From: Clostridiales bacterium
Lineage (GTDB): Bacteria; Bacillota; Clostridia; Oscillospirales; Oscillospiraceae
Length of the DNA stretch: 32,000 nucleotides
NCBI GenBank assembly: GCA_021203185.1
Contig: JAJQBR010000160.1
Span: 1,790-33,789 of the forward strand
Direction of reading: 5' to 3'
Part shown: positions 1 to 12,415 of the stretch, one piece after another
How positions within the stretch are numbered: the first letter of the stretch is position 1
Layout: each line of letters begins with the position of its first letter
The notes under the pieces: model-generated
What the model was told of the DNA's origin: nothing
Database searches by the model: none
Seen by the model: only the letters and a program-made list of their open reading frames with translations
Program-made: the position numbers and the translations under genes

Positions 1-412
1 CCACCTCGTCGAACAGCACCCCGGCCAGGGTGATGCCCTGAATGAGAGCGTAGCTGCTCTCGTCTTTGCCGCCGAAGATATAAAAGCGGTTTTCCCGGCC
101 CAGCCCGCGAACCATCAGGACGTGGTCGGCTCGACGATAGGTCAGGGAGAAATACGCCTGCAAGTCCGCTTGTTCCTGCGCCGGGCGGATGATGTTCCGC
201 TCCGCGCTGGCCACGGTTTTTCCACAGATGCCGAAGTTCTGGCCGTTGAAGTTACGCATGGCCCACAGAATGAAGGCCGTCAGCATACAGACGGTTTTGC
301 CGCTTCTGACGGCTCCATCACAGATGAGGGCCTTGTATTTGTCCCGCGTGGAGGGCGTAAATGCCCATTTCAGCACGGTTTTTTGTTTGGGGGAGAGTTC
401 GGAGAGGGTCAT
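1..412 (-). CDS. terL: Terminase large subunit, N-terminal ATPase part (gene truncated by window edge)
   Basis: Absent from the ORF track because it is truncated. Own translation from ATG 412..410: MTLSELSPKQKTVLKWAFTPSTRDKYKALICDGAVRSGKTVCML...ITLAGVLFDEV, with Walker A (GAVRSGKT) and Walker B-like (VLFDE) motifs. ATGA overlap with the terS stop. Confidence 0.8.
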   Translation of the reverse strand, partial: MTLSELSPKQKTVLKWAFTPSTRDKYKALICDGAVRSGKTVCMLTAFILWAMRNFNGQNFGICGKTVASAERNIIRPAQEQADLQAYFSLTYRRADHVLMVRGLGRENRFYIFGGKDESSYALIQGITLAGVLFDEV

Positions 413-795
413 TCAGAATTTTCCTTTTCCAGCGCATCAAAGAGCTTGGAGGCGGCTTTTTCCTGGTCAGGGCTGCTGGCGAGTTCCGGCTTGTCCCGCC
501 ACTTGTCCGGGCGGCGGTTTTTCAGCCAAAAGATTTGGGCGGTGGTGTTGCCCTCCAGGGCCGCGCCCAACAAGGCGTTTTCCACCTGGTAGTCTACGAC
601 CTCTTTGCCCTTTTTTAGGGCCTGCGAAATCTGCGGATACCGCTCTTTCCATTCGTACAGTGTACGGACGTTGCACCCACAGTTCTTTGCAATTTGTTCA
701 TCGGTCAGGCCGTCCCTGGCCCAACCCTCCAGCAGCAGGAGGCCGTCCGGCTCCAGCCACTTTTGATATTTACCCTTCGCCACAACGGGCCTCAC
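409..795 (-). CDS. terS: Terminase small subunit (HTH type)
   Basis: 128-aa ORF directly upstream of and overlapping terL. N-terminal HTH GLTDEQIAKNCGCNVRTLYEWKERYP. The start may be GTG 795 or GTG 783. Confidence 0.7.
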   Translation of the reverse strand: MRPVVAKGKYQKWLEPDGLLLLEGWARDGLTDEQIAKNCGCNVRTLYEWKERYPQISQALKKGKEVVDYQVENALLGAALEGNTTAQIFWLKNRRPDKWRDKPELASSPDQEKAASKLFDALEKENSE

Positions 796-1051
796 CGCCT
801 TTCAGGGTATGACAAAGCCGCCCCGATTGGAGCGGCCCGTCAGAAGGAGAAAACGTCCGGTGGGCGGCTCGTGCGCCGCCAGGAGGCAGGGATGTTGAGG
901 AATCCTCCATCACCGGCCCATAGGACAACCAGAATTGCACTGGGAACGCGCCTGTGGTGCGCTGCCCCTTTTACGCCTGGGGCATTGAAGGAGGTGACAT
1001 CAATGAAGAAAGCAAACAATCCTTGTTTTCATCTTTCATCTTACCACGCTA

Positions 1052-1492
1052 TCAGTTTACATCAGAATTTTGGCTCTTGGGGGCCAACTTTTCTGTCAGC
1101 CCCATATTTTCGGCTACCAGGACGAGAAACCCGTTGACCTTCCGGCGGGCTGTCCGGTAACTGACATGGACCGTCTGAGCGGCCCCCTCCAGGGTGTGGG
1201 TACGCTGCCAGAACACCAGCCGCACCAACTGCACGGTGATTTCTCCGTCGGGTCGAGCCTGCACCACGCGTAGCGCCGCCTCTACTGCCTCCAGCTCTCG
1301 CTGCTCCTGCTTGTCTGGCAGCACCCGCAGGGCCAGGGCCTCCGCCGGACGGCCTGTCCCGCTGCCGTGTCCGCCGCCCTCCCCGTGGGACTGCAACGGC
1401 GCTTGCAGCGCGTCCAGCTCTGCGCGCATCCGGGGGTATTCGTACAAAATCCGGCGGATGTAACTCCACCATTTGTTGCGTGGTTTGCTCAC
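1052..1492 (-). CDS. Phage late-gene transcriptional regulator (RinA/sigma-70 region-4-like HTH)
   Basis: 146 aa with GTG start after GGGGTAAGGAGGACAA. C-terminal LVFWQRTHTLEGAAQTVHVSYRTARRKVNGF resembles a sigma region-4 HTH. Its position just upstream of terS is typical of late activators. Confidence 0.55.
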   Translation of the reverse strand: MSKPRNKWWSYIRRILYEYPRMRAELDALQAPLQSHGEGGGHGSGTGRPAEALALRVLPDKQEQRELEAVEAALRVVQARPDGEITVQLVRLVFWQRTHTLEGAAQTVHVSYRTARRKVNGFLVLVAENMGLTEKLAPKSQNSDVN

Positions 1493-1596
1493 TTGTCCTC
1501 CTTACCCCAGCTTGCCGCCACACACAGGGCAGTCACAAACAGCCCCAAACCACCGCCCAACAGCAGCCCGATCACAAATCCCAATACAAACATCAT
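1489..1596 (-). CDS. 35-aa single-TM peptide (MMFVLGFVIGLLLGGGLGLFVTALCVAASWGKEDK)
   Basis: Own translation. ATGA overlap with the upstream stop and GTGA overlap with the downstream start. Hydrophobic core. Confidence 0.4.
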   Translation of the reverse strand: MMFVLGFVIGLLLGGGLGLFVTALCVAASWGKEDK

Positions 1597-1754
1597 GCGT
1601 TCCCCTTCACCTTCTTTGGCCGGTACACCCGCCCGTTGAGATACGCTTTATACCCCGCCTTCGCCATCTCCGCGATGGTCTTAGCGTCATAGATGCAGTT
1701 TTCATCCTCGGTCTGCATCATGGTTTTGCCGTTTAGCTTGATTTCAAATTTCAT
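1593..1754 (-). CDS. Small phage protein, 53 aa (MKFEIKLNGKTMMQTEDENCIYDAK...)
   Basis: Internal start of track ORF 1593..1991, preceded by GGGAGTGGGAGGTGGAAC. The upstream part of the track ORF has poor third-position GC. Confidence 0.5.
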   Translation of the reverse strand: MKFEIKLNGKTMMQTEDENCIYDAKTIAEMAKAGYKAYLNGRVYRPKKVKGNA

Positions 1755-1884
1755 GTTCCACCTCCCACTCCCAGCAGTCGCAGCAGTCGTTGTTGTCTGC
1801 GTCCTCCATGAAGTTTTCGCTTTCGGTGCAGTTGCAGTCTCCGAAAATGGGATCTCTCCATCCGCAGTTACAGCAGCTTTCCAT
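1744..1884 (-). CDS. Cys-rich acidic microprotein, 46 aa (MESCCNCGWRDPIFGDCNCTESENFMEDADNNDCCDCWEWEVEHEI)
   Basis: Own translation; below the track size cut-off. RBS GGAGGAG lies 8 nt upstream. Third-position GC is much higher than in the alternative frame. It overlaps the next start. Confidence 0.5.
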   Translation of the reverse strand: MESCCNCGWRDPIFGDCNCTESENFMEDADNNDCCDCWEWEVEHEI

Positions 1885-1999
1885 GCGGTCATCTCCTCCC
1901 CTTCCCCACCTTCACCCGATGGGGATGTCTCATTTTGCCCCTGTGGGGCTGTGTGTGGGCCTGTAAGCGCCTCATTCCGTCCCATGTCCACCGAGATAG

Positions 2000-2113
2000 G
2001 AGACGATTATGAGACGGCATGAGACGCAAATGAGACGGCCCTGAGACGACTTTGAGACGGCATGAGACGCAAATGAGACGGCCCTGAGGCGATTTTGAGA
2101 CGGCTACGAGACG
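2000..2113. repeat. Array of 11 phased (T)GAGACG heptamers, including a 43-bp tandem duplication (2011-2053 / 2054-2096)
   Basis: GAGACG starts at 2000, 2011, 2021, 2032, 2043, 2054, 2064, 2075, 2086 (GAGGCG), 2097 and 2108, a spacing of 10-11 bp. The stretch is non-coding. Confidence 0.9.
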
Positions 2114-2994
2114 GTTTCCGCCTTGACAATTCGGCCCACCTGAGCCTTACTCAGCCCAAACTTATCCGCCGCCTTTTGGTAGCTGTTCCCGGCCTGCACA
2201 TAAGCCCTGATTGATTCGTCTCTGTTCTCCGGCTCATTTGCTGGTTTCCAGTCCTCCAGCTCTTGCCTGTATTGTTGGGCCTCAGCCTGGGCAGCGCTCA
2301 GGGCCTCTTGCGTTTCCTGCAACCGGCGCTTGGTGTAGTCCAGCTCTGCCGCCGTATCCTCCCGCAGAATCGCCTTGTCTTTCCACCCGTTGGCCGCTAT
2401 CTCTGCCTCGCTCAGCTTCTTTTTCAGCCGATCCGTCTCTGCCTGTCTCCCCTCCATGCCGGAGAGATAGGCCAGCAAATACACAGCCTTGTAAGCCCTT
2501 GTAAGTTCATCCTCGTTACACTCCATACCGAGGGCTTGATGTAAGAGGGCGCGGGTTTGGCGGCATCCGTCCTGTTCCCACGCCGTTCCCGGTTCCCACT
2601 CCCCGCCGTGGGTCAAGTGGGCCAGCACTGTGTCAACCTCCGGGCTTTGTTGCACCTCCCAGGCCAGCAGCCACGCTTTACGCCTCCACAGGGCCACAGC
2701 CACGCACCCGGCGGCCAGCAGAATCAGCAGCACCGCCACAATCGGGGCCTCCATAACGGCCATAGCAGCGGCCATAGCCACAAGCAGGATAGAAAGTATC
2801 ATCATAGAGCGGGACAGCGGGGGCAGGCAGCGATTCAGGCAGCCCCACGGGTTGAACCAGATCACGCAGGCCAGCTCCCCCACAAGGCAAATAGCCACGG
2901 CAACGGGGTGAATCCGCTCCGGCTGACACCCGGCAACTACCAGGGCCAGCAGAGGGACGCCACAGGCCAGCACAGAGGAACGGGCGTGGAGCAT
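2104..2994 (-). CDS. Membrane-anchored coiled-coil protein with C-terminal HTH
   Basis: 296 aa. The N-terminal third is hydrophobic with several TM-like segments. The middle is coiled coil (LKKKLSEAEIAANGW...QEALSAAQAEAQQYRQELE). The C-terminus IRAYVQAGNSYQKAADKFGLSKAQVGRIV is HTH-like. The start is uncertain. Confidence 0.6.
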   Translation of the reverse strand: MLHARSSVLACGVPLLALVVAGCQPERIHPVAVAICLVGELACVIWFNPWGCLNRCLPPLSRSMMILSILLVAMAAAMAVMEAPIVAVLLILLAAGCVAVALWRRKAWLLAWEVQQSPEVDTVLAHLTHGGEWEPGTAWEQDGCRQTRALLHQALGMECNEDELTRAYKAVYLLAYLSGMEGRQAETDRLKKKLSEAEIAANGWKDKAILREDTAAELDYTKRRLQETQEALSAAQAEAQQYRQELEDWKPANEPENRDESIRAYVQAGNSYQKAADKFGLSKAQVGRIVKAETVS

Positions 2995-3065
2995 CCCGGC
3001 CAGAGGCCAGATACTCCACCCGCCGGTCGAAGTCCTCTTGCGTGATGATAGGCCCCTTCATGGCC

Positions 3066-3248
3066 TCACCACGTCCCGAAGGCCAGGCCCAACACACCAC
3101 AGGCCAGGGCCAGCACTCCCACACCAATCATGGCGGGGCCGGTGTGGAGGGCCAGGGCAGCAGCTCCCACGGCCAGAGATACCAGGGACAGCACCCGGTC
3201 AACGGGCAAAGAGCTGTCAAAGGGTCCGCGTTCCTTGTTGTTCCTCAT
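3066..3248 (-). CDS. Small membrane protein, 60 aa
   Basis: RBS GAAGGAGGTAAAGCG precedes the ATG. Two hydrophobic segments. Confidence 0.55.
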   Translation of the reverse strand: MRNNKERGPFDSSLPVDRVLSLVSLAVGAAALALHTGPAMIGVGVLALACGVLGLAFGTW

Positions 3249-3263
3249 CGCTTTACCTCCTTC

Positions 3264-3506
3264 TTACAACATGGTCAGGACGCCGCCCCACATGGCAAGC
3301 ATACCCACAAAGGCGATAACTGTTTGCACCGCCCCGGCGTATTTGTAGGGCAACAGTGCGCCAGCGGCAAAAATCAGAAACGACAGCACCGCCAGCACTT
3401 GCGCAACTGACAGCATCGGTTCTGACAGGCTCCACAGCCAATCAATGCGCCAGACCATGAAGCCAAACCAGGCGGCCAGGGCAACGCCCCAAAATATACG
3501 GTTCAT
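3264..3506 (-). CDS. Small membrane protein, 80 aa (MNRIFWGVALAAWFGFMVW...)
   Basis: Internal start of track ORF 3264..3605, preceded by GGATGGAGGAAACACC. ATGA overlap with the upstream stop. Confidence 0.55.
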   Translation of the reverse strand: MNRIFWGVALAAWFGFMVWRIDWLWSLSEPMLSVAQVLAVLSFLIFAAGALLPYKYAGAVQTVIAFVGMLAMWGGVLTML

Positions 3507-4354
3507 GGTGTTTCCTCCATCCATTCCGTGTCCGCCAGCAGCTTTTCCAACTGCCGCCGGTTTTCTTCCAGTTCTGCCTCTGTCGCCCGGCGCGGAGTTG
3601 CGCACGGCTCCGGCCCGGTGGCTTTTTTGCGGCGGGACGGCACCCGCCTTTGGCTGGCCGCATCAGTCAGCCCGTCTCGCTCCCAGCGCCGCATAATGGC
3701 CTCCAGGTAGCCGAATTTCCGCGCATCGTTGGCTCCGGCCTCGCGGATCAGCCGCTCCACAGTCTCGCTGCCGTAACTTCGATACCAGCCCAGCAGGGTT
3801 TCCCTCGCCCTCGCATTTGGCTCAATGGCGGTTTCCGCCCGCAGCAGAGCGGAAAAATCATCCAAAGCCCTTTCTTCGGCAGCAGCAGCCGCAGCCAGAG
3901 CGCCGGAATCGGCATCACGGTCAGGCTCAGGCTCAGGGCCATGCTCAGGCTCAGGCTCAGTATCAGGTTCAGTATCATTATCAGGCTCAGGCTCATTATC
4001 ATTATCGGGTTTTTTCGCTTTTGTTCGGTTTTCAAAAAAACCATTCGGTTTCTCCGGGTTTTCTGAAAAACCGTTCGGTTTCTTATGTTTGGGCGGTCTG
4101 CCGCCCTTTTTCCCGTTCTCCTGATTCTGACGGCATTTCTCTTTGTACTTTTCCCGATCCCGGTCAAATGTACGGCGGATAAATCGAAACACGGCTCTCA
4201 CGGAGGGATCGTCACCGGCATAGACTTCCCCACGCTTCTGATAGGCGAACATGGCGCGCAGCAGCGCCCCCGCCTGCTCGTCAGTGAAGTCCTCGATGTC
4301 CTCTTCCCAGTCGTAGTAAACAATGAAGCTCTGCTTTACGCCATCCTTCCCCAT
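3503..4354 (-). CDS. Phage replication initiation/replisome organizer protein (DUF6291-like N-domain, acidic EP/DN linker, DnaD-like C-domain)
   Basis: The start MGKDGVKQSFIVYYDWEEDIEDFTDEQAGALLRAMFAYQ matches the recalled DUF6291 pattern. The C-terminal ETLLGWYRSYGSETVERLIREAGANDARKFGYLEAIMRRWERDGL is DnaD-domain-like. Confidence 0.7.
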   Translation of the reverse strand: MGKDGVKQSFIVYYDWEEDIEDFTDEQAGALLRAMFAYQKRGEVYAGDDPSVRAVFRFIRRTFDRDREKYKEKCRQNQENGKKGGRPPKHKKPNGFSENPEKPNGFFENRTKAKKPDNDNEPEPDNDTEPDTEPEPEHGPEPEPDRDADSGALAAAAAAEERALDDFSALLRAETAIEPNARARETLLGWYRSYGSETVERLIREAGANDARKFGYLEAIMRRWERDGLTDAASQRRVPSRRKKATGPEPCATPRRATEAELEENRRQLEKLLADTEWMEETP

Positions 4355-4358
4355 CCGC

Positions 4359-5393
4359 TCACCCGCCCTTCTGACAGACCGTAACCCGCACCTGTGGCGG
4401 CACACAGCGGCGGACGGCCTCGATGAACCAGGCCTCGTCGGAACAGGCGTCCGACAAATGCAGCAGGAAGATTTCCCGGCAGTCCTCCAGCGGCATGGAG
4501 GACAGATAGCCGCACAGCGTTCCAATTTCCATGTGGCTGTTGCGGATTCGGCGCACCACCTGCTCCGGCATCCGGGTTTGGCGGGACAGAATCACGTCCC
4601 AGTAGTTGGCTTCGATGGCCAGCAGGTTCAGGCCGGGGAAGCGGTAACGCAGGTTGGCGGTGTCGGTGGCGAAGGCCAGCCTGTCCCCGTCGGCTCCCAG
4701 CAGCAGGAAGCCAACCGGTTCTCTGGCGTCGTGGAAGGTTCGGAAGGGCAGCACCTTCCAGCTTCCAATGTCCACCGGCGCGCCCACGTCCTGCCCCACC
4801 TCCGGGGCCAGAGGGACGGCACCCTCAGCGCCCAGGGCCTGCATGGTCCCGTGGGACATATACACCGGCACACCCGCCTCCAGCAGCTTGTCCCAGCAGC
4901 GGGAGTGGTCCTTGTGTTCGTGGCTGACCAGGCACCCGGCCAGCCGGGAGACGGAATAACCCGCCCCCCGGACCAGCTGGCTCAACCGCCGGAAGCTGAC
5001 CCCGCACTCGATCAGCAGTACGCTTTCCCCATCGTCCACCAGATAGGCGTTGCCATGGCTGGAGCTGCCCAGCAAAGTATCCGTGTCGAAGGCGGCAAAG
5101 GCGTCGTCGGTGAACGCCGTCCCCGTCCAGCTGCCCAAAAACTTGCGCAGGTTGCCCTTTTTGCTGGCGCTGACCGCAAAGGTGCGGCTCAACTGCCGGG
5201 GCTTCATCTCCCCATCGACTTCAATGGTTTTGGCGGGAATCTCAAAGGTAAACATGATTTGGTTGGCGTAACGGGTTTTGTTCTTAAATTCCGTCTGCTG
5301 CTCCCCCAGCTCGTAGATACCAACGCACACCGCCAGGTAAGTACCAGGCTCCACCGGAGGCGTTTTCGGCTTTACTCTCGTCCCGATTATCAT
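4359..5393 (-). CDS. Fusion protein: DUF669-like (phage SSB-partner-like) N-domain plus MBL-fold metallo-hydrolase C-domain
   Basis: The N-terminal roughly 105 aa (VEPGTYLAVCVGIYELGEQQTEFKNKTRYANQIMFTFEI...) resemble DUF669. From LGSSSHGNAYLVDDGESVLLIECG, with the HxHxDH motif SHEHKDHS, it is MBL fold. Confidence 0.7.
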   Translation of the reverse strand: MIIGTRVKPKTPPVEPGTYLAVCVGIYELGEQQTEFKNKTRYANQIMFTFEIPAKTIEVDGEMKPRQLSRTFAVSASKKGNLRKFLGSWTGTAFTDDAFAAFDTDTLLGSSSHGNAYLVDDGESVLLIECGVSFRRLSQLVRGAGYSVSRLAGCLVSHEHKDHSRCWDKLLEAGVPVYMSHGTMQALGAEGAVPLAPEVGQDVGAPVDIGSWKVLPFRTFHDAREPVGFLLLGADGDRLAFATDTANLRYRFPGLNLLAIEANYWDVILSRQTRMPEQVVRRIRNSHMEIGTLCGYLSSMPLEDCREIFLLHLSDACSDEAWFIEAVRRCVPPQVRVTVCQKGG

Positions 5394-7309
5394 TCCAATA
5401 CCTCCCTCAGTGTCTTATCGCCCTTGCTGGCCACCAGCCGAATGACCTGGGTGTCCACCTCCAACAGGTGGGTCACGCTCTCCGCGTTGTCCACGAACAG
5501 CGGCACCCGGACGCCGTTGGCCCGGCTGAGCACATCAATGACATCCAGCCCGGCGTTGACCTTTTCGCCGCTGTTCAGGTCGCTGTAGGGGACGCCGCCC
5601 ACCGTGGCCCGGCAGCAGTCCACCAGTGCCCCGTTGATTTGGGTATCGAACAGCTTCCACCGCACCCGGCGAAACAGGCTGTTCACCCGCTGGTCGATAT
5701 ATGCGGCCTTCGCCGTGGTGAACTGGTCGCACAGGGCCAGCAGCGCGTCTACGTCCTCCAGCTCTGCCGCCGCTTTTCGGGCGGCCTCGGTCAGCTCCTG
5801 CTGGCGGCTCTGGGCGTTTTGCAGCACCTGTTCCCCGGCCAGCACCCCGTCCATGTCCCGGAGGGTCTGGGACGCCTGAAGAAACCGGTCTCTCGCGGCA
5901 GAGATGGCCCCGGCGCTGTCCTGCCTCACCTGTCGGATCTGCTCTTGCAGCTCTGCCACCTGTTGGGTCAGCTTGTCCTTCTGGGCGGCATAGCCGGGGA
6001 GGTTCGTCACCTCCTGCCCCTCCAGGGCGGTCAGCTGGGCCATCAGGTCGGTTTTCTGTCCGGCGGCCTGCCGCAGTTCTTCCCGCAGGCTGTCCAACCG
6101 TCGGTTGGTTTCCTCCAGGCGCTGTTTGTGTTCGTTGGCTTGACTGATCGCCAGGGCTTTCCGCTGGGCCTGCTCCGTCTGGAACTTCTGGCGGGCTTCC
6201 TCCACCCGCTCCCTCGGAAAAGCCTGCCCACAGGTGGGACAGCGGCCCGGCGTGAACTGTTCTGCCGCCGCCGCTTTCCAGGCGCTCCGGCACTGTTCCA
6301 CCTGTTCCTGCATCCGCGTGATGTCGGATTCCAGATAGCTCTGCTCCTGCGTCAAACGGGCGGTGTTTCGCTCCAGCCGGTCAAGCTCACGCTTGGCTCG
6401 GTCTACTGCGTCGGGGTCTTGTTGCCCGGCCCGGTGCGCATCGTTCTCGGCCTCCAGCTTGTCCAACTGGGCCTGTACTGCGGTCAGCTGGCTTTCCTGC
6501 AATTTGGCGCTGTCGCTGGAGCGCAGGTTGTCCAGTTCCCGCTGGCGGCGGTCCCGCTCCCCGGCCAGTTCCTCCCGCTGCTGCCGGAGGCTGGCAAAGT
6601 CCAGGTCACAGTATTCCGTCACCGTCCGTTTGCACTCGTCCAGCCGGGCGGGAATGGTGTTGCGTTTGGTGTTCAGGGACCGGCGCTGGGCCTGTAATGC
6701 CTTCCGGGTGTCCTCCACGGTGCGGCCCGCCATAGACGCCGCCAGCGGCGCAAACTGGGGATCGCTGTTCAGGATGTCCCCCTCGTCGGCCCCGCCGATC
6801 AGATCGAATAGAGCCGCCCGTCGGCTGTTCTCGTCCATCCCGGCGCAGAACCAGGTCACGTCCGTCAGCGCCCGGAAGGTGGATTCCTCCACCAGCTCGC
6901 CGATGCGCCGGTCATACTCGTTCTTTTTCAGCGGCACCCCGTCCACGAAAAACTCGCTGGAGTTGCCGTCGAAGGACTTCCCCGCCCGGCCCCGCTTCTG
7001 GGTCCAGAGTTCAAAGTAGGTGCGCCGCAGGGTCAGCGGCTGCCCGTCCACCAGCAGAATGGCCTCCACAGAGGTCTCCGCCCCGTGATCCAGCACCTCC
7101 CCGGCCCCGTCCAGGGGCTTGATGTGGAACTTGGTCTGTCCCTTGCTGTCCTTGCCGAACAGCAGCCAGGTCAGCGCGTCGTAGATGGTGGTTTTTCCGG
7201 CGGCGTTCTCGCCGTAGATGCTGCAATTCCGCCCTCCCAGCTCCAGCCGGAGGGAGGGGCAGCCCTTGAAGTTCCGCAGCTCCAGGGTGTCGATGGTGAT
7301 GGTTTTCAT
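5390..7309 (-). CDS. Rad50/SbcC-like SMC-type ATPase with CxxC zinc hook
   Basis: The start MKTITIDTLELRNFKG follows RBS GGAGAAGGAGG. Walker A is GENAAGKTT. A long coiled coil has central CPTC (nt 6230-6241). The C-terminal region is signature/Walker B-like (LFVDNAES). Confidence 0.8.
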   Translation of the reverse strand: MKTITIDTLELRNFKGCPSLRLELGGRNCSIYGENAAGKTTIYDALTWLLFGKDSKGQTKFHIKPLDGAGEVLDHGAETSVEAILLVDGQPLTLRRTYFELWTQKRGRAGKSFDGNSSEFFVDGVPLKKNEYDRRIGELVEESTFRALTDVTWFCAGMDENSRRAALFDLIGGADEGDILNSDPQFAPLAASMAGRTVEDTRKALQAQRRSLNTKRNTIPARLDECKRTVTEYCDLDFASLRQQREELAGERDRRQRELDNLRSSDSAKLQESQLTAVQAQLDKLEAENDAHRAGQQDPDAVDRAKRELDRLERNTARLTQEQSYLESDITRMQEQVEQCRSAWKAAAAEQFTPGRCPTCGQAFPRERVEEARQKFQTEQAQRKALAISQANEHKQRLEETNRRLDSLREELRQAAGQKTDLMAQLTALEGQEVTNLPGYAAQKDKLTQQVAELQEQIRQVRQDSAGAISAARDRFLQASQTLRDMDGVLAGEQVLQNAQSRQQELTEAARKAAAELEDVDALLALCDQFTTAKAAYIDQRVNSLFRRVRWKLFDTQINGALVDCCRATVGGVPYSDLNSGEKVNAGLDVIDVLSRANGVRVPLFVDNAESVTHLLEVDTQVIRLVASKGDKTLREVLE

Positions 7310-7515
7310 GGCCGGGCCTCCTTCTCCGGGGTGTATTTCAGGGTGTAGCGCATCCGCCCACAGCAGGCGCATTTTGCCTTCCGGCTCCGAGCCGGGGTCA
7401 GTTTCAAGTTGTAGCGGCCTTGCACGGTGTCGCTGACCGCCTCAGCGCAGGGTCTGCACAGACGTTCCGGTCTGTCCACCTTCAGGAGGATGGTTTTCGT
7501 GGGGTTCTCACTCAT
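7306..7515 (-). CDS. Small zinc-ribbon-like phage protein, 69 aa
   Basis: CxxC motifs (CRPC and CACC). ATGA overlap with the ATPase gene start. Confidence 0.5.
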   Translation of the reverse strand: MSENPTKTILLKVDRPERLCRPCAEAVSDTVQGRYNLKLTPARSRKAKCACCGRMRYTLKYTPEKEARP

Positions 7516-7664
7516 CCCTCCTCCGCCTCCTTCTGCTCCGCTGCGAACAGCAGGTGGTACAGCTCATTCAACGTGTTATAAGCAGCCTCGGCGCCGATGT
7601 ATCCATCTGACACCGCCTGAACGATAGAAGAAATTGCAGTTTTTAGCGCGGTTGATGTTTTCAT
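7512..7664 (-). CDS. Small helical phage protein, 50 aa (MKTSTALKTAISSIVQAVSDGY...)
   Basis: Own translation. RBS CAAGGAGGAAACAAAATCA. The stop overlaps the next start. Confidence 0.45.
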   Translation of the reverse strand: MKTSTALKTAISSIVQAVSDGYIGAEAAYNTLNELYHLLFAAEQKEAEEG

Positions 7665-7700
7665 TGATTTTGTTTCCTCCTTGTGGTATTCTGTAAGTGG

Positions 7701-8234
7701 TTATTTTGCCTTGCCGCTGTCGGAACTGGTACTTCCGGCGGCGGCTTTTTTTGGCCCGGCGCCGCGCCTTTTGTACGGGATGTCAATGCCCCGCTTGCCA
7801 AGCGCATAGATAGCCGTGGTCACTGTATGGGTGTCCGTACCCAGCACAGCGGCGATTTGGTCTGAGGTCATGCTGCTCCAGTCGCGGCTTTGCAGCCGCC
7901 CTCTGATGGATAATCCAGATTTGCCACGACTCCCCGCTGGTCGTCCAGTTTCCGGGTCCAGATTTGGCTCTTTGTGCGCCAGCCTCCGCTCGTCCGGCAT
8001 GATGGGCCAGCACTCGTTGAACCCCTTGTCTACCCGGTGGCCGGTGCTGTCGTAGCCCTCCAGCGGGAGATGCACCGTGGCAAACCGCCGCTGAGTGTGG
8101 ATATAAATCACCAGCCCGGTCAGGGCGTGGGGCGGCTGACAGTGTTCGTTGCCGTTGTCCTTCTTGTCCAGGGCATAGGGCGTCAGCCGCAGCCTGTCCC
8201 CGATGGCGACGGTGCGGAGGAGGTAGGGGATCAT
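7701..8234 (-). CDS. Hypothetical phage early protein, 177 aa, with a possible C-terminal HTH
   Basis: Track ORF. RBS GGAGGCGG and ATGA coupling. SDQIAAVLGTDTHTVTTAIYALGKRG is HTH-like. Confidence 0.55.
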   Translation of the reverse strand: MIPYLLRTVAIGDRLRLTPYALDKKDNGNEHCQPPHALTGLVIYIHTQRRFATVHLPLEGYDSTGHRVDKGFNECWPIMPDERRLAHKEPNLDPETGRPAGSRGKSGLSIRGRLQSRDWSSMTSDQIAAVLGTDTHTVTTAIYALGKRGIDIPYKRRGAGPKKAAAGSTSSDSGKAK

Positions 8235-8467
8235 CTGGCCGCCTCCATTTCTTCATATTCGTGGACGGCCTCCCTGTAGATGTCAGCAACTTTTTCAACG
8301 TCGATGTTGGCGTCTAGCGTCGCCTGGGCCAGCCCCGCAATTAAAGCGCTGACAATATGGGAGGTATACCCATCGCAAGCAAAAATCGGCACCGGGTCGT
8401 TTGCTTTCTTCGTAATATTGATGCTAAATTCGGCGTTCAGCATTTCGGCCAATATTTCCTGTCTCAT
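8231..8467 (-). CDS. Hypothetical phage protein, 78 aa
   Basis: Internal start MRQEILAEML preceded by GGGGAGGG. Translationally coupled on both sides. Confidence 0.5.
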   Translation of the reverse strand: MRQEILAEMLNAEFSINITKKANDPVPIFACDGYTSHIVSALIAGLAQATLDANIDVEKVADIYREAVHEYEEMEAAR

Positions 8468-8643
8468 CTGCAATCCCTCCCCGCAATCAGCGCTTCCAGC
8501 CACCACCCGGCGGCAGCCAGGCACAGGATACTTCCGGCGTTCGTCCGCCCGCAAAGGGCCACGGCGATACCGGCGCAGGCAGCGACAAAGCCCAGCAGGG
8601 CGGTCAGGCCGAAGATGATCAGGGCGGTTTCAGCGTGTTTCAT
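8464..8643 (-). CDS. Small membrane protein, 59 aa
   Basis: Internal start MKHAETALIIFGL preceded by GGGAAAGGAGG. Two hydrophobic segments. Confidence 0.5.
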   Translation of the reverse strand: MKHAETALIIFGLTALLGFVAACAGIAVALCGRTNAGSILCLAAAGWWLEALIAGRDCR

Positions 8644-8989
8644 GGTCGGCCTCCTTTCCCAGCGGCCAGCGGAACTCCCAGTGGTCAACGGCATCGTTGC
8701 TAGGGTAGCAACTGGCGCAGTCGGCGCAGGGCGGCTCGTAGGTGTGCTTTTCTTTGTGCTTGCACGCTACACAGTACCCGTGCATGTCCTGCTTGATTTC
8801 CTCCAGCACCTCCACCGCCTGGACAGCGGCGGTCAGGGCCTGCTTGTCGCGGGCAACCTCTACCGCCGAAAAGGTATCAGCGGTCAGCCGGGAATAGGTG
8901 AATGACACCTGGCTCAGCCGGTCGATGATCTCTTTTGTGGTCATTGGCGCCCTTGTCTGCGGCGCTAGGGGCGTGATGTTGTCTGTCAT
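8630..8989 (-). CDS. Hypothetical phage protein, 119 aa, with a Cys cluster (CVACKHKEKHTYEPPCADCASC)
   Basis: Internal start MTDNITPL preceded by GGAGGAAACACA. Confidence 0.55.
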   Translation of the reverse strand: MTDNITPLAPQTRAPMTTKEIIDRLSQVSFTYSRLTADTFSAVEVARDKQALTAAVQAVEVLEEIKQDMHGYCVACKHKEKHTYEPPCADCASCYPSNDAVDHWEFRWPLGKEADHETR

Positions 8990-9015
8990 TGTGTTTCCTC
9001 CTTTGTGCATTATGG

Positions 9016-11304: not shown

Positions 11305-11337
11305 ATGACTTGAACCGAAAGAGAGAAGGTGCAGCAT

Positions 11338-11724
11338 ATGCCGGAAAACCGGCTGTTCCGGGTAGGGGAATACCTGGAGCGGTATAATGAAATAACCGGT
11401 CAGTCTATCCCGCCCGGCGGCATTTATCAGTCCCCCGGTCTTGTCCGGCATATTGAGAAGCGGCACCCGGAGAACGTGTCACAAATCGACTTGATACCGG
11501 AGATTCTGGCCGCTCCAGATTACATTGGACACAACCCCAAAGAGACGGACAGCGTGGAGCTGGTCAAGGTGTACGGGCAAAATTTGATGGTCTGTGTAAA
11601 GCTGGATCGAAGGAAGGGTTACTTGTTTGTGGCCAGTTTTTTCAGCATCAGCCAGGGAAAGTTGAAAAACCGGCTCAACAGCGGCAGGCTGAAACGTCTG
11701 GAGAAGAAAACAAAAATAGATTGA
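11338..11724 (+). CDS. Barnase-EndoU-ColicinE5/D-RelE (BECR)-fold, PBECR-like putative RNase/toxin (128 aa)
   Basis: The pattern IYQSPGLVRHIEKRHPENVSQIDLIPEILAAPDYIGHNPKETDSVELVKVY...VKLDRRKGYLFVASFFSIS..KLKNRLNSGRL matches the recalled signature of phage/plasmid PBECR domains. Recall only, not searched. Confidence 0.55.
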   Translation: MPENRLFRVGEYLERYNEITGQSIPPGGIYQSPGLVRHIEKRHPENVSQIDLIPEILAAPDYIGHNPKETDSVELVKVYGQNLMVCVKLDRRKGYLFVASFFSISQGKLKNRLNSGRLKRLEKKTKID

Positions 11725-11755: not shown

Positions 11756-11925
11756 ACTAAAAGCATATGCTTTAATGAGCAGTGAGGTCGGAAAGGCTCC
11801 CGACGCTCCCGGAAACGGGAACCTGAGATGCAGGATACGCCGCCCTGCCATTGCTCAACAGGCCCCTGGCAGTAAGCGCCCCCGCGATATGGGGGAGATC
11901 TGAACCCAGGGGCTTTATTTATACA
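11756..11925 (+). ncRNA. Candidate structured sRNA of about 170 nt, class unknown
   Basis: It lies downstream of the promoter above. Hairpins: AAAGCATATGCTTT (11760-11773), GUCGG/CCGAC, CCCG-GAAA-CGGG, CUGCCA/UGGCAG and CCCCC/GGGGG. GCCCCUGG (11862-11869) pairs with CCAGGGGC (11906-11913), followed by UUUAUUUAU. No ORF has a credible RBS. Confidence 0.35.
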
Positions 11926-12019: not shown

Positions 12020-12415
12020 TTACCCGATATTCAGTTTTTCTTTCAGGGCTTCCTGGAGGACGCCGGAGAAGTTGATGCCGTTGCTTTCGGCCAGATCATT
12101 CAGCCAACTGGGGATGGTCAACGTCTTTTTTACGGCCTTGCTGTCATAGAACCGGCGATACCAGTCGGTGTCACAGCCCACCAGCGAGACAAATTCGCCG
12201 CTTTCGTGCTGTACATCGTTCACCCCGGAGGGCGCGGGGATGGTTTCTCCGTCTTTCTCCATCCAGTACAAGGTCAAACACAGGGCGTCCTTCGCCATTT
12301 CGATTCCTTCGTTTACGTCGGCGGCGCTGGTGTAGCAGCTTTCCAGGTCGGGGAAACGGATGCTATATCCCTCTTCTTCCTTCGTGAAAATCGCCGGATA
12401 TGCGTATTTTGCCAT
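12020..12415 (-). CDS. hicB: HicB-family antitoxin
   Basis: 131 aa. MAKYAYPAIFTKEEEGYSIRFPDLESCYTSAADVNEGIEMAKDAL is the typical HicB N-domain. The C-terminal TLTIPSWLNDLAESNGINFSGVLQEALKEKL is RHH-like. Confidence 0.85.
   Translation of the reverse strand: MAKYAYPAIFTKEEEGYSIRFPDLESCYTSAADVNEGIEMAKDALCLTLYWMEKDGETIPAPSGVNDVQHESGEFVSLVGCDTDWYRRFYDSKAVKKTLTIPSWLNDLAESNGINFSGVLQEALKEKLNIG

Follow-up and report, generated by a model that had tools for sequence, protein, structure and literature searches.

A phased repeat array as the probable docking site of an adjacent, predicted membrane-HTH protein in an Oscillospiraceae prophage

Introduction

The p16.7 protein of phage phi29 is an early phage protein made up of an N-terminal membrane anchor with one transmembrane (TM) helix, a coiled coil and a C-terminal DNA-binding domain, and it binds DNA without sequence specificity, in addition to terminal protein. 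To our knowledge, p16.7 is the only well-studied phage membrane organizer of DNA. In Bacillus subtilis, the sequence-specific proteins Noc and RacA recruit particular DNA sites to the membrane or the cell pole; both are chromosomal, contact the membrane peripherally (through an amphipathic helix or via DivIVA) and act at dispersed sites. The p16.7 protein anchors phage DNA replication to the membrane (PMC4974454), and the CGP3 protein AlpA binds the alpS repeats and is needed for efficient replication of the phage DNA, for which membrane targeting was proposed by the authors (PMC4446434).

Phased iteron arrays that are bound by the product of a neighboring gene are an already known kind of element. 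Specificity has diversified against cross-talk in Rep-iteron, ParR-parC and repressor-operator pairs. The parC site of R1 consists of ten 11-bp direct iterons, each bound by about one ParR dimer, with cooperative coating of one face of the DNA (PMC2241845). In SaPI origins, 6–12 iterons, some of them in opposite orientation, lie immediately 3′ of rep (PMC9371898). Binding by KfrA of IncU and IncP plasmids requires several repeats, of which three are direct and two inverted (PMC7783346).

Here we follow up a sequence-only reading of a 32-kb stretch of Oscillospiraceae DNA (the window), which had called attention to a phased array in a prophage and had named an iteron origin, a ParR-type centromere and a terminase recognition site as candidate functions. 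Comparison with related loci leads us to another proposal, in which the array very probably is a docking site for the DNA-binding tail of the adjacent, predicted membrane-embedded protein.

Results

An array of phased repeats closes a prophage replication operon

The feature under study is the following:

2000–2113, minus strand: repeat array of 11 direct repeats, 10–11 bp apart, identified by repeat finding, by exact-word search and by relatives that carry arrays at the same place

An exact-word search recovered all 11 units where the sequence-only reading had placed them. GAGACG is exact at 2000, 2011, 2021, 2032, 2043, 2054, 2064, 2075, 2097 and 2108, and the sole variant of this core, GAGGCG (CGCCTCA on the gene strand), is at 2086. 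The spacings of 11, 10, 11, 11, 11, 10, 11, 11, 11 and 11 bp have a mean of 10.8 bp, in agreement with the helical phasing that had been described. The count of eleven units also holds, but their description as TGAGACG heptamers was too strict: the exact heptamer occurs in just 8 of the 11, the others being TGAGGCG, GGAGACG (the first unit) and CGAGACG (the last). The neighboring genes are encoded by the minus strand; read the way they are transcribed, the repeat is CGTCTCA, and the array occupies the 3′ end of its neighbor gene, ORF 2104–2994. The clustering is far above chance. Both strands of the whole window contain 28 copies of GAGACG (13.6 expected), and 10 of these fall within the 114 bp of the array, where ∼0.03 would be expected (Poisson P ∼3e-22).

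A 43-bp tandem duplication within the array, also described previously, was recovered by TRF (period 43 × 2.6 copies, 91% matches, score 191) and by a repeat search in which 2000–2042 and 2043–2085 are 95% identical. TRF also reported periods of 11 and 22 bp. Since the close relative L090 carries the same array with 7 units instead of 11, the window array appears to have gained one 43-bp block of four units.

The ORF list contains no ORF of 60 or more amino acids over 2023–2103, as had been stated. The array was said to touch the stop codon of ORF 2104–2994; the contact is real, but the array in fact straddles the end of the gene, overlapping the stop codon (2104–2106) and the last codons, which contain unit 2108–2113. 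A coding repeat was ruled out, as neither the 10–11 bp period nor the 43-bp indel is a multiple of 3. A Rho rut-like, C-rich RNA was also rejected, as it leaves the co-variation with the HTH (below) unexplained. A search of the array region against Rfam gave no relevant match, and the pattern GAGACG-N4-5-GAGACG-N4-5-GAGACG retrieved 73 unrelated stretches from IMG/VR, mostly single chance matches.

Beyond the array, toward the late genes, the repeat recurs in inverted, degenerate form:

1968–1984, plus strand: two degenerate inverted copies, CGCCTCA (1968–1974) and CGTCCCA (1978–1984), with homologous copies in relatives
1922–1935, plus strand: third inverted copy, GGGATGTCTCATTT, 86% complementary to AAATGAGACGGCCC within the array, found by inverted-repeat search; its core is TGTCTCA (1926–1932)

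The first two are 10 bp from each other and 16 bp past the array. Inverted copies homologous to those of the window are present in L090, L074, L087, L105, L106, L101 and L103 and are missing in L086, L078, L094, L088 and L091. The GC content is 55% in the array, 61% in the spacer and 53% in the gap, versus 57% for the prophage background; a GC scan found no AT-rich unwinding element beside the array, and the stretches of lowest GC are elsewhere. No terminator was found between ORF 2104–2994 and the array in the window. Promoter scans of the window, L092 and L086 detected no sigma70-like promoter between the array and a conserved leader that follows it:

1893–1949, minus strand: conserved leader, identified by comparison of loci, with a short GC hairpin (CCCCACAGGGG), an A-run, a second hairpin and a G-box (GGGGAAGGGGAGGAG, 1893–1907)

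The G-box is placed as the Shine-Dalgarno sequence of a Cys-rich ORF (1744–1884). No ∼10-kb locus has more than one, and it is 3′ of the array in every locus where a phased array is seen; the exact pattern is absent in four loci and also, through one extra G, in the window. RNAalifold gave −4.5 kcal/mol and one compensatory pair for the leader, and given these values we make no claim of a conserved RNA structure.

This region has genes on the minus strand only. Listed as they are transcribed, genes for an SbcC-like ATPase (5390–7372) and an MBL-fold hydrolase (4359–5393) are followed by:

3503–4525, minus strand: DnaD-like replication protein (DUF6291 and DnaB_2), in the replication operon that the cassette closes
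3264–3605, minus strand: second small membrane protein, probably ∼80 amino acids from an internal start, present in loci of the DnaD-like type only
3066–3248, minus strand: small two-TM protein of 60 amino acids, part of the cassette, which directly precedes the membrane-HTH gene in all loci with called genes but one

Next are ORF 2104–2994, the array and the leader, and then small ORFs, including the Cys-rich ORF of 46 amino acids, a RinA-family regulator (1052–1492) and the small terminase subunit TerS (409–795). TerS carries an HTH_23 domain, and its gene is 1.2 kb from the array with at least four ORFs between. This order matches the earlier description of a non-coding phased array with the replication module on one side and the RinA-like regulator and TerS on the other, and the comparisons below support the suggestion that it binds protein. 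The prophage ends with an integrase gene (13319–14542) beside two tRNA-Ser genes, after which there are host genes (DnaE, PolA, RuvB and others); the array is ∼11–12 kb from this attachment region. The linker-coding part of the DnaD-like gene contains two 30-bp, palindrome-bearing repeats (4014–4073). Positions 1–9000 of the window had no megablast match among 50,697 phage records. Searches for ParM, ParA and TubZ in the cassette and the window prophage (Pfam, PHROGs, NCBIfam and the gene calls of relatives) found none, and PADLOC returned only coiled-coil noise.

The adjacent gene encodes a predicted membrane-anchored HTH protein

2104–2994, minus strand: gene of the presumed binder, 296 amino acids, with four N-terminal hydrophobic helices, a helical domain, a long helix and a C-terminal HTH

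Hydropathy places four hydrophobic segments within the first ∼105 residues, followed by RRK and by a conserved helical domain (QSPEVD..GCRQTRALLHQ in the window). An AF2 model, run on a 23-sequence alignment, contains four N-terminal helices, one continuous helix at 161–248 and a three-helix HTH at 258–295. The continuous helix is a predicted coiled coil of ∼88 residues, for which a length of about 13 nm would be expected. Confidence in the model is moderate (pLDDT 69, pTM 0.33), and the small, conserved helical domain at its center is modelled poorly. From the number of TM helices, four, and the basic residues on the loops predicted to be cytoplasmic, we expect both ends of the protein, including the HTH, to be in the cytoplasm. 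Pfam gave just a weak HTH_23 match (262–292) and NCBIfam a sub-threshold match of the HTH to sigma70-ECF region 4. The protein has no PHROG match and matches neither ribbon-helix-helix nor ParR families, its predicted fold being a three-helix HTH; PDB, queried by sequence profile and, with the model, by Foldseek, yielded only generic coiled-coil and small HTH domains. The sequence-only reading had mentioned the membrane anchor but had missed its importance as what we regard as the key to the mechanism.

In the window, a 7-bp duplication (TCTGGCC, ∼3003–3009) frameshifts the first 21 codons of the ancestral gene, whose start was at 3061. The 296-residue ORF begins at the next Met after the frameshift and keeps all of the TM helices. 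Because the first 21 codons have been lost, this copy of the gene may be impaired.

The cassette recurs in phage and satellite elements

Close homologs number 23, all from uncultured Clostridiales/Oscillospiraceae MAGs. The wider family comprises 271 representatives at 50% identity (E ≤ 1e-3; 104 with E ≤ 1e-10), which share an architecture of TM helices, a QSPEVD..GCRETRALLHQ domain, a coiled coil of variable length and an HTH. Searches with tblastn found no homologs in 50,697 isolated-phage records or in 72,556 PLSDB plasmids, and two JGI metagenome scans found none. Scanning IMG/VR with the protein of a close relative gave no match; three IMG/VR loci were found solely with an alignment of distant members.

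About 25 loci were retrieved, and arrays were quantified in 14 of these, from uncultured Clostridiales/Oscillospiraceae MAGs. The arrays have 5–13 units with a mean spacing of 10.5–11.1 bp. They begin within a range of about −25 to +7 nt relative to the homolog's stop codon, except in L092, whose array is immediately 5′ of the small-TM gene, itself located ahead of the homolog gene. A detector of phased repeats that is blind to motif found essentially one array per ∼10-kb locus, always beside the cassette. More distant relatives (36–40% identity; L095, L098, L099, L101 and L103) also have an array beside the cassette. In L101 and L103, it consists of seven downstream copies of CGTATTYT with three inverted copies; in L098 and L099, of upstream CGGTCAC-type units ∼22 bp apart; and L102 has four TTTCA-N-TGAAA palindromes ∼22 bp apart, downstream. 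As in L092, the arrays of L095, L098 and L099 are directly 5′ of the small-TM/HTH operon, upstream of which L097 and L100 carry repeats that are not phased. Steps of 10 and 12 bp alternate in L088, L089, L091 and L078, giving a 22-bp super-period, and some distant relatives have 22-bp units with inverted half-sites.

The cassette (small two-TM gene, membrane-HTH gene and array) is the last part of the replication operon in the window, in most relatives and, counting only loci with readable upstream genes, in all but one; in L079 and L092, other genes lie between the cassette and the primase gene. It occurs with five replication-protein families, namely DnaD-like, DUF3987 primase, D5_N, Toprim-DnaB_C and DUF927 (plus helicase), and is mobile between the replication modules of phages and satellites. 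The elements of the relatives have att-like sites at their ends. Downstream of array and leader, at least seven satellite-type loci have nothing but a terminator before the element stops, and in satellite-type relatives, the array is 150–250 bp from the end of the element. An array of the same kind accompanies a Terminase_4 TerS in L077, and in several other loci no TerS was called in the stretch read.

Elements with different words reside in the same MAG: four in C.9_6 (L086, L091, L094 and L096), two in U_127109 and two in C.1_13, with the caveat that several cassettes per MAG could reflect binning errors. The assembly of the window itself encodes a second homolog, P0005, with a different recognition helix.

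The repeat word follows the recognition helix

The sequence-only reading had proposed that motif and phase be compared among related prophages. Position and phase are conserved; the motif is not, and varies instead with the recognition helix of the adjacent protein, as listed here (helix, repeat word, loci):

AQVGRIVK, CGTCTCA: window, L090
TQVGRIAK, TGTCCCA: L104
SMVGVIVK, CGTCCAA: L106
TQV[HY]RIIN, CGTTCCG: L074, L087, L093
SQVWRLAN, CGTTCC: L088
TGVHRLVK, CGTTCCA: L089
TKVWRLAR, CGTTTCA: L091
TRVAQIVK and TSVANIVK, CGTTCA(G): L105, L092
YAVEKI, CTGTCYGA: L086, L078
SKVALLVK, CTGTCCA: L094

In a Mantel test over 14 loci, motif distance was correlated with recognition-helix distance (r = 0.36, p = 0.002), a modest correlation among loci that are not phylogenetically independent, but not with the distance between the rest of the proteins (r = −0.04, p = 0.59). 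Individual pairs behave likewise. The window protein and that of L090 differ by 61% outside the HTH region, yet helix and word are identical, whereas L090 and L106 (11% different outside the HTH region) and L074 and L104 (12%) differ in both helix and word. L075, with a DnaD-like replicon, and L078, with a DUF3987 primase replicon, have word and HTH helix in common, which excludes the DnaD-like protein as the specificity determinant. TerS was also ruled out as the specificity partner, as the word follows the adjacent HTH helix and the TerS families vary. Of the three binders that had been suggested, these comparisons favor the HTH of the 2104–2994 protein and speak against TerS and the DnaD-like protein.

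Because the word tracks the recognition helix and not the rest of the protein, the type of replication module or TerS, the array is best read as the cognate site of the adjacent HTH, and we hold with considerable confidence that array and membrane-HTH protein would form a cognate pair. Such co-variation is a stronger sign of function than conservation of the motif would be. The presence of several words in single MAGs is the pattern that would be expected of a self-recognition system under pressure against cross-talk.

Discussion

How might such a pair function? With a protein in the membrane and the array bound by it, tethering follows physically, and the position of the cassette at the end of the replication operon favors a role in replication at the membrane. 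We therefore propose that the cassette may be a replication-linked, sequence-specific DNA-to-membrane tether in which the array is bound by the 2104–2994 protein, an account in which we have middling confidence and which could equally prove wrong. In this model, the protein would form a parallel coiled-coil dimer that sets its two HTHs on two successive repeats, ∼21–22 bp or two helical turns apart. One dimer per two units would fit the 22-bp super-period of several arrays, the 22-bp TRF period and the 22-bp units of distant relatives. Four to six dimers would be aligned on one face of ∼110 bp of DNA, their ∼13-nm stalks linking it to the four-helix membrane domain, which probably has a partner in the small two-TM protein of the preceding gene. 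This would pin the genome of the phage or satellite to the cytoplasmic membrane, where the cassette would organize or anchor it as it replicates, and a word private to each element would allow co-resident elements to do so without cross-talk. Such a tether would be a counterpart, with sequence specificity, to phi29 p16.7 or to the CGP3 pair AlpA-alpS. Within this scheme, the membrane topology with a cytoplasmic HTH and the geometry of one dimer per two units are what the protein and the spacing would predict, and the role in replication is suggested, through guilt by association, by position.

What a pure tether model does not account for is the invariant leader, with its G-box, found after every array. 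It can also be held against a tether that integrated elements have no obvious need for one.

More tentatively, the temperate phages and satellites of gut Oscillospiraceae may use a self-contained "membrane centromere", made up of an integral-membrane, coiled-coil protein with sequence-specific DNA binding and of a private phased iteron array, to fix each genome to its own patch of membrane, giving them separate territories for replication or packaging, with a rapidly diversifying protein-DNA code that prevents incompatibility; we consider this extension possible but doubtful. If true, the code would avoid incompatibility between co-resident phages and the satellites that parasitize them.

Other explanations of the array deserve consideration. 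It could be a replication origin, with the membrane-HTH protein as an origin-recognition factor that recruits the DnaD-like or primase-helicase machinery. The array comes directly after replication genes, beginning at the stop codon of a gene with a predicted C-terminal DNA-binding domain, a placement that resembles the SaPI origin with its iterons, some inverted, just 3′ of rep (PMC9371898). The two or three inverted copies past a short gap in the window and several relatives, and specificity private to each element, which is typical of Rep-iteron pairs, also point this way. However, the canonical iteron origin envisaged in the sequence-only reading should include the AT-rich unwinding element that we did not find beside the array (GC 53–61%, against a background of 57%), and the inverted copies are missing in five loci. 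One cassette that works with five unrelated replication-protein families is hard to reconcile with specific recruitment contacts, and the palindrome-bearing repeats in the DnaD-like gene are another origin candidate in the window. We also know of no initiator with four TM helices, and we regard an origin as unlikely. A transcriptional operator or roadblock seems to us similarly improbable. Here, the protein would coat the array and control read-through from the early operon into the small ORFs, the RinA-like gene and TerS, with autoregulation in the "upstream-type" loci (L092, L095, L098 and L099), where arrays directly precede the small-TM/HTH operon. The leader with a strong Shine-Dalgarno sequence after the array in all loci with a phased array, the lack of a terminator between gene and array in the window and the sub-threshold likeness of the HTH to sigma70 region 4 would all suit such a role, and the arrays of ParR and KfrA serve as operators as well (PMC2241845; PMC7783346). 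Yet the scans of the window, L092 and L086 showed no sigma70-like promoter between array and leader, and in the satellite-type loci (at least seven) where only a terminator and the element end follow the leader, there would be nothing to regulate. A build-up of early protein that blocks entry into the late genes contradicts the temporal logic of phages, and an operator leaves the membrane anchor unexplained.

A partition centromere, for which the membrane-HTH protein would be the centromere-binding protein and the membrane would replace the motor, could serve excised or plasmid-state copies. Its geometry would be near that of R1 parC, with ten 11-bp iterons and about one ParR dimer on each (PMC2241845); specificity has diversified among co-resident elements much as described for the ParMRC families of C. 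perfringens (PMC9426499); and partition sites, like the arrays, can be 5′ or 3′ of their genes. Against this, and against the ParR-type centromere of the sequence-only reading in particular, neither ParR nor ParM was found, nor were ParA or TubZ, in the cassette or window prophage. The elements are integrative (an integrase beside tRNA-Ser in the window, att-like ends in relatives), none of the 72,556 plasmids has a homolog and the gene is in a lytic early operon, all of which make a centromere rather unlikely. The earlier suggestion of a pac site, read by the HTH ring of the small terminase (409–795), fares worse. The HTH motifs of TerS rings are about one helical turn apart. They form a circular array (PMC4737164), and the TerS of the window has an HTH_23 domain, with the array between the early genes and terS. 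But 1.2 kb and at least four ORFs separate the array from terS, the word follows the adjacent HTH helix, and arrays of the same type, always abutting the membrane-HTH gene, occur with a Terminase_4 TerS (L077) or where no TerS was called, which leaves a pac site very improbable. Hardly credible, finally, are sites for a recombination directionality factor near attP, analogous to the direct repeats of Cox, Apl and Xis that are one helical turn apart. Satellite-type relatives do carry the array 150–250 bp from the element end, but that of the window is ∼11–12 kb from the integrase and tRNA-Ser, outside the attP arms, no gene resembling such a factor co-varies with the motif, and a membrane protein is implausible as an excisionase.

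If the tether model is correct, this would be the first sequence-specific DNA-to-membrane tether in the form of a compact cis/trans cassette in phages and satellites. Nature would have supplied, in this family, no fewer than 11 pairings of a recognition helix with a 7-bp word, some on near-identical backbones, from which the specificity code of a small HTH could be read directly and orthogonal DNA-anchoring parts drawn. Different words within one genome would offer a way to test how co-resident phages and satellites separate their genomes. With 271 clusters at 50% identity, a Pfam model for little of its length and no members in the isolated phages and plasmids searched, the family represents uncharacterized biology of gut phages. 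As far as our searches reach, a predicted sequence-specific binder with four TM helices, a coiled coil and a private array has not been described, nor is a characterized homolog of this one known.

How does the cassette compare with known systems? In contrast to the dispersed sites of Noc and RacA, there is a single phased array here, and we found no homology to these proteins. The likeness to phi29 p16.7 (membrane anchor, coiled coil and C-terminal HTH, encoded among early genes) is one of architecture, on which hydropathy, AF2 model and place in the operon agree; no match to p16.7 came from PHROGs, from Foldseek against PDB or from profile searching of the PDB sequences, and the predicted four TM helices and dedicated cis-acting array set the cassette apart. 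KfrA resembles the 2104–2994 protein in combining an HTH and a long alpha-helical coiled coil with an array of short repeats, but its HTH is N-terminal, it has no membrane domain and its contiguous 9-bp repeats overlap its own promoter. Like AlpA-alpS, the cassette would be a prophage-encoded early adaptor that probably binds short repeats clustered next to the operon encoding it. AlpA, however, is soluble and acts through actin-like AlpC filaments, whereas the adaptor here is predicted to be itself in the membrane; and no phasing like that of the window array is described for the alpS repeats (TTAAnnG, 24 copies).

The closest parallels are in geometry and placement. As in ParR-parC of R1, the array has a regular series of units (11, with a mean of 10.8 bp), which we presume from the sequence to be bound, and its specificity is private to each element, as in the C. 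perfringens ParMRC families (PMC9426499). Unlike ParR, a soluble ribbon-helix-helix protein, the presumed binder carries its HTH at the tip of a coiled coil that is predicted to be anchored in the membrane; moreover, no ParM was found, the window array is 3′ of the gene and not in a promoter, and the host element is an integrative prophage. From the SaPI/PICI origins, the cassette differs in having no central AT-rich region, in a predicted membrane-integral binder that is neither helicase nor primase and in its combination with five replication-protein families. It shares with them short, element-specific iterons right after a gene whose C-terminal domain is here predicted to read them, and several of its relatives, as SaPI and PICI, are satellite-like islands.

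A common leader follows the phased arrays

The same leader lies 3′ of each phased array found, in the window and in the relative loci L074–L106, which come from uncultured Clostridiales/Oscillospiraceae MAGs and carry homologues of the membrane-HTH gene.

1893–1949, minus strand: leader, with homologous positions in L074–L106

A short GC hairpin is followed by AAAA(C) and a C-rich stretch; after a second hairpin comes the G-box GGGGAGGGGAGG, of which no ~10-kb locus has more than one copy. The G-box is the Shine-Dalgarno sequence for the next gene, which is the gene for the small two-TM protein in those loci where the array lies 5′ of it; in satellite-type loci, the G-box is an orphan and a terminator follows. 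No convincing covariation was found in the leader RNA.

On the other strand, the words of all arrays become TGAAACG, GGAACG, TGAGACG or CTGAACG, and these look like ECF-sigma −35 elements.

The membrane-HTH gene and its boundaries

Relative to L074, the membrane-HTH gene has its first 21 codons thrown out of frame by a 7-bp duplication of TCTGGCC at about 3003–3009.

2104–3061, minus strand: membrane-HTH gene, including the frameshifted 5′ part

The duplication may be an artefact of assembly; alternatively, the protein may be truncated at its N-terminus or the gene may be starting to decay. At the other end of the gene, the reading frame in locus L106 runs on through the initial two or three repeat units (3874–3903), which add a C-terminal tail (..SNDRPIAVQ*) to the protein, and therefore the boundary between gene and array shifts. 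The HTH domain, which gave a sub-threshold match to sigma70-ECF region 4 (E = 0.002), may have descended from sigma region 4.

Prophage ends and other elements in the window

The TerS encoded at 409–795 lacks a 25-residue internal segment found in the 73%-identical TerS of locus L083 and may be defective. The remaining features are as follows.

11777–11856, plus strand: skipping-rope RNA (Rfam, 75.5 bits), prophage accessory region
13319–14889: prophage integrase (407 aa) and two adjoining tRNA-Ser genes (GCT and TGA anticodons)
20160–20335 and 22097–22200: two paralogous intergenic elements, either side of a PLD/cardiolipin-synthase gene

The tRNA-Ser genes are likely the prophage attachment site; host genes for replication and repair (DnaE, PolA and RuvB) come after this region. 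The skipping-rope RNA comes straight after a PBECR3 nuclease ORF (11329–11724) and ahead of a HicB-like gene (12020–12415). Both paralogous elements, neither of which matched Rfam, contain a run of four to five TAGCTNT heptamers and, about 110 bp (20160–20335) or about 50 bp (22097–22200) downstream of its end, a complementary run of three to four AGCTAAC-type heptamers, the two runs together forming a long imperfect inverted repeat of heptamers.

A candidate origin and satellite-like relatives

Two 30-bp repeats (4014–4073), each containing the 14-bp palindrome AAACCGAAYGGTTT, sit in an A/T-richer stretch within the linker-coding part of the DnaD-like replication gene and are kept only in the close relative L083.

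3921–3995: hexamer coding repeat (PEPEPD linker), adjoining the 30-bp repeats

The palindromic repeats are a candidate origin inside the initiator gene, in the style of lambda O.

Many homologous cassettes lie within small integrated elements (L077, L078, L075 and L082). Such elements either have no genes beyond those for a repressor, for a primase or DnaD-like protein and for capsid and/or TerS, which makes them capsid-forming satellites or PICI-like, or they end at att-like repeats, of GGGGTAACA (three to five copies) in L075 and of AATTGCTTG in L082.
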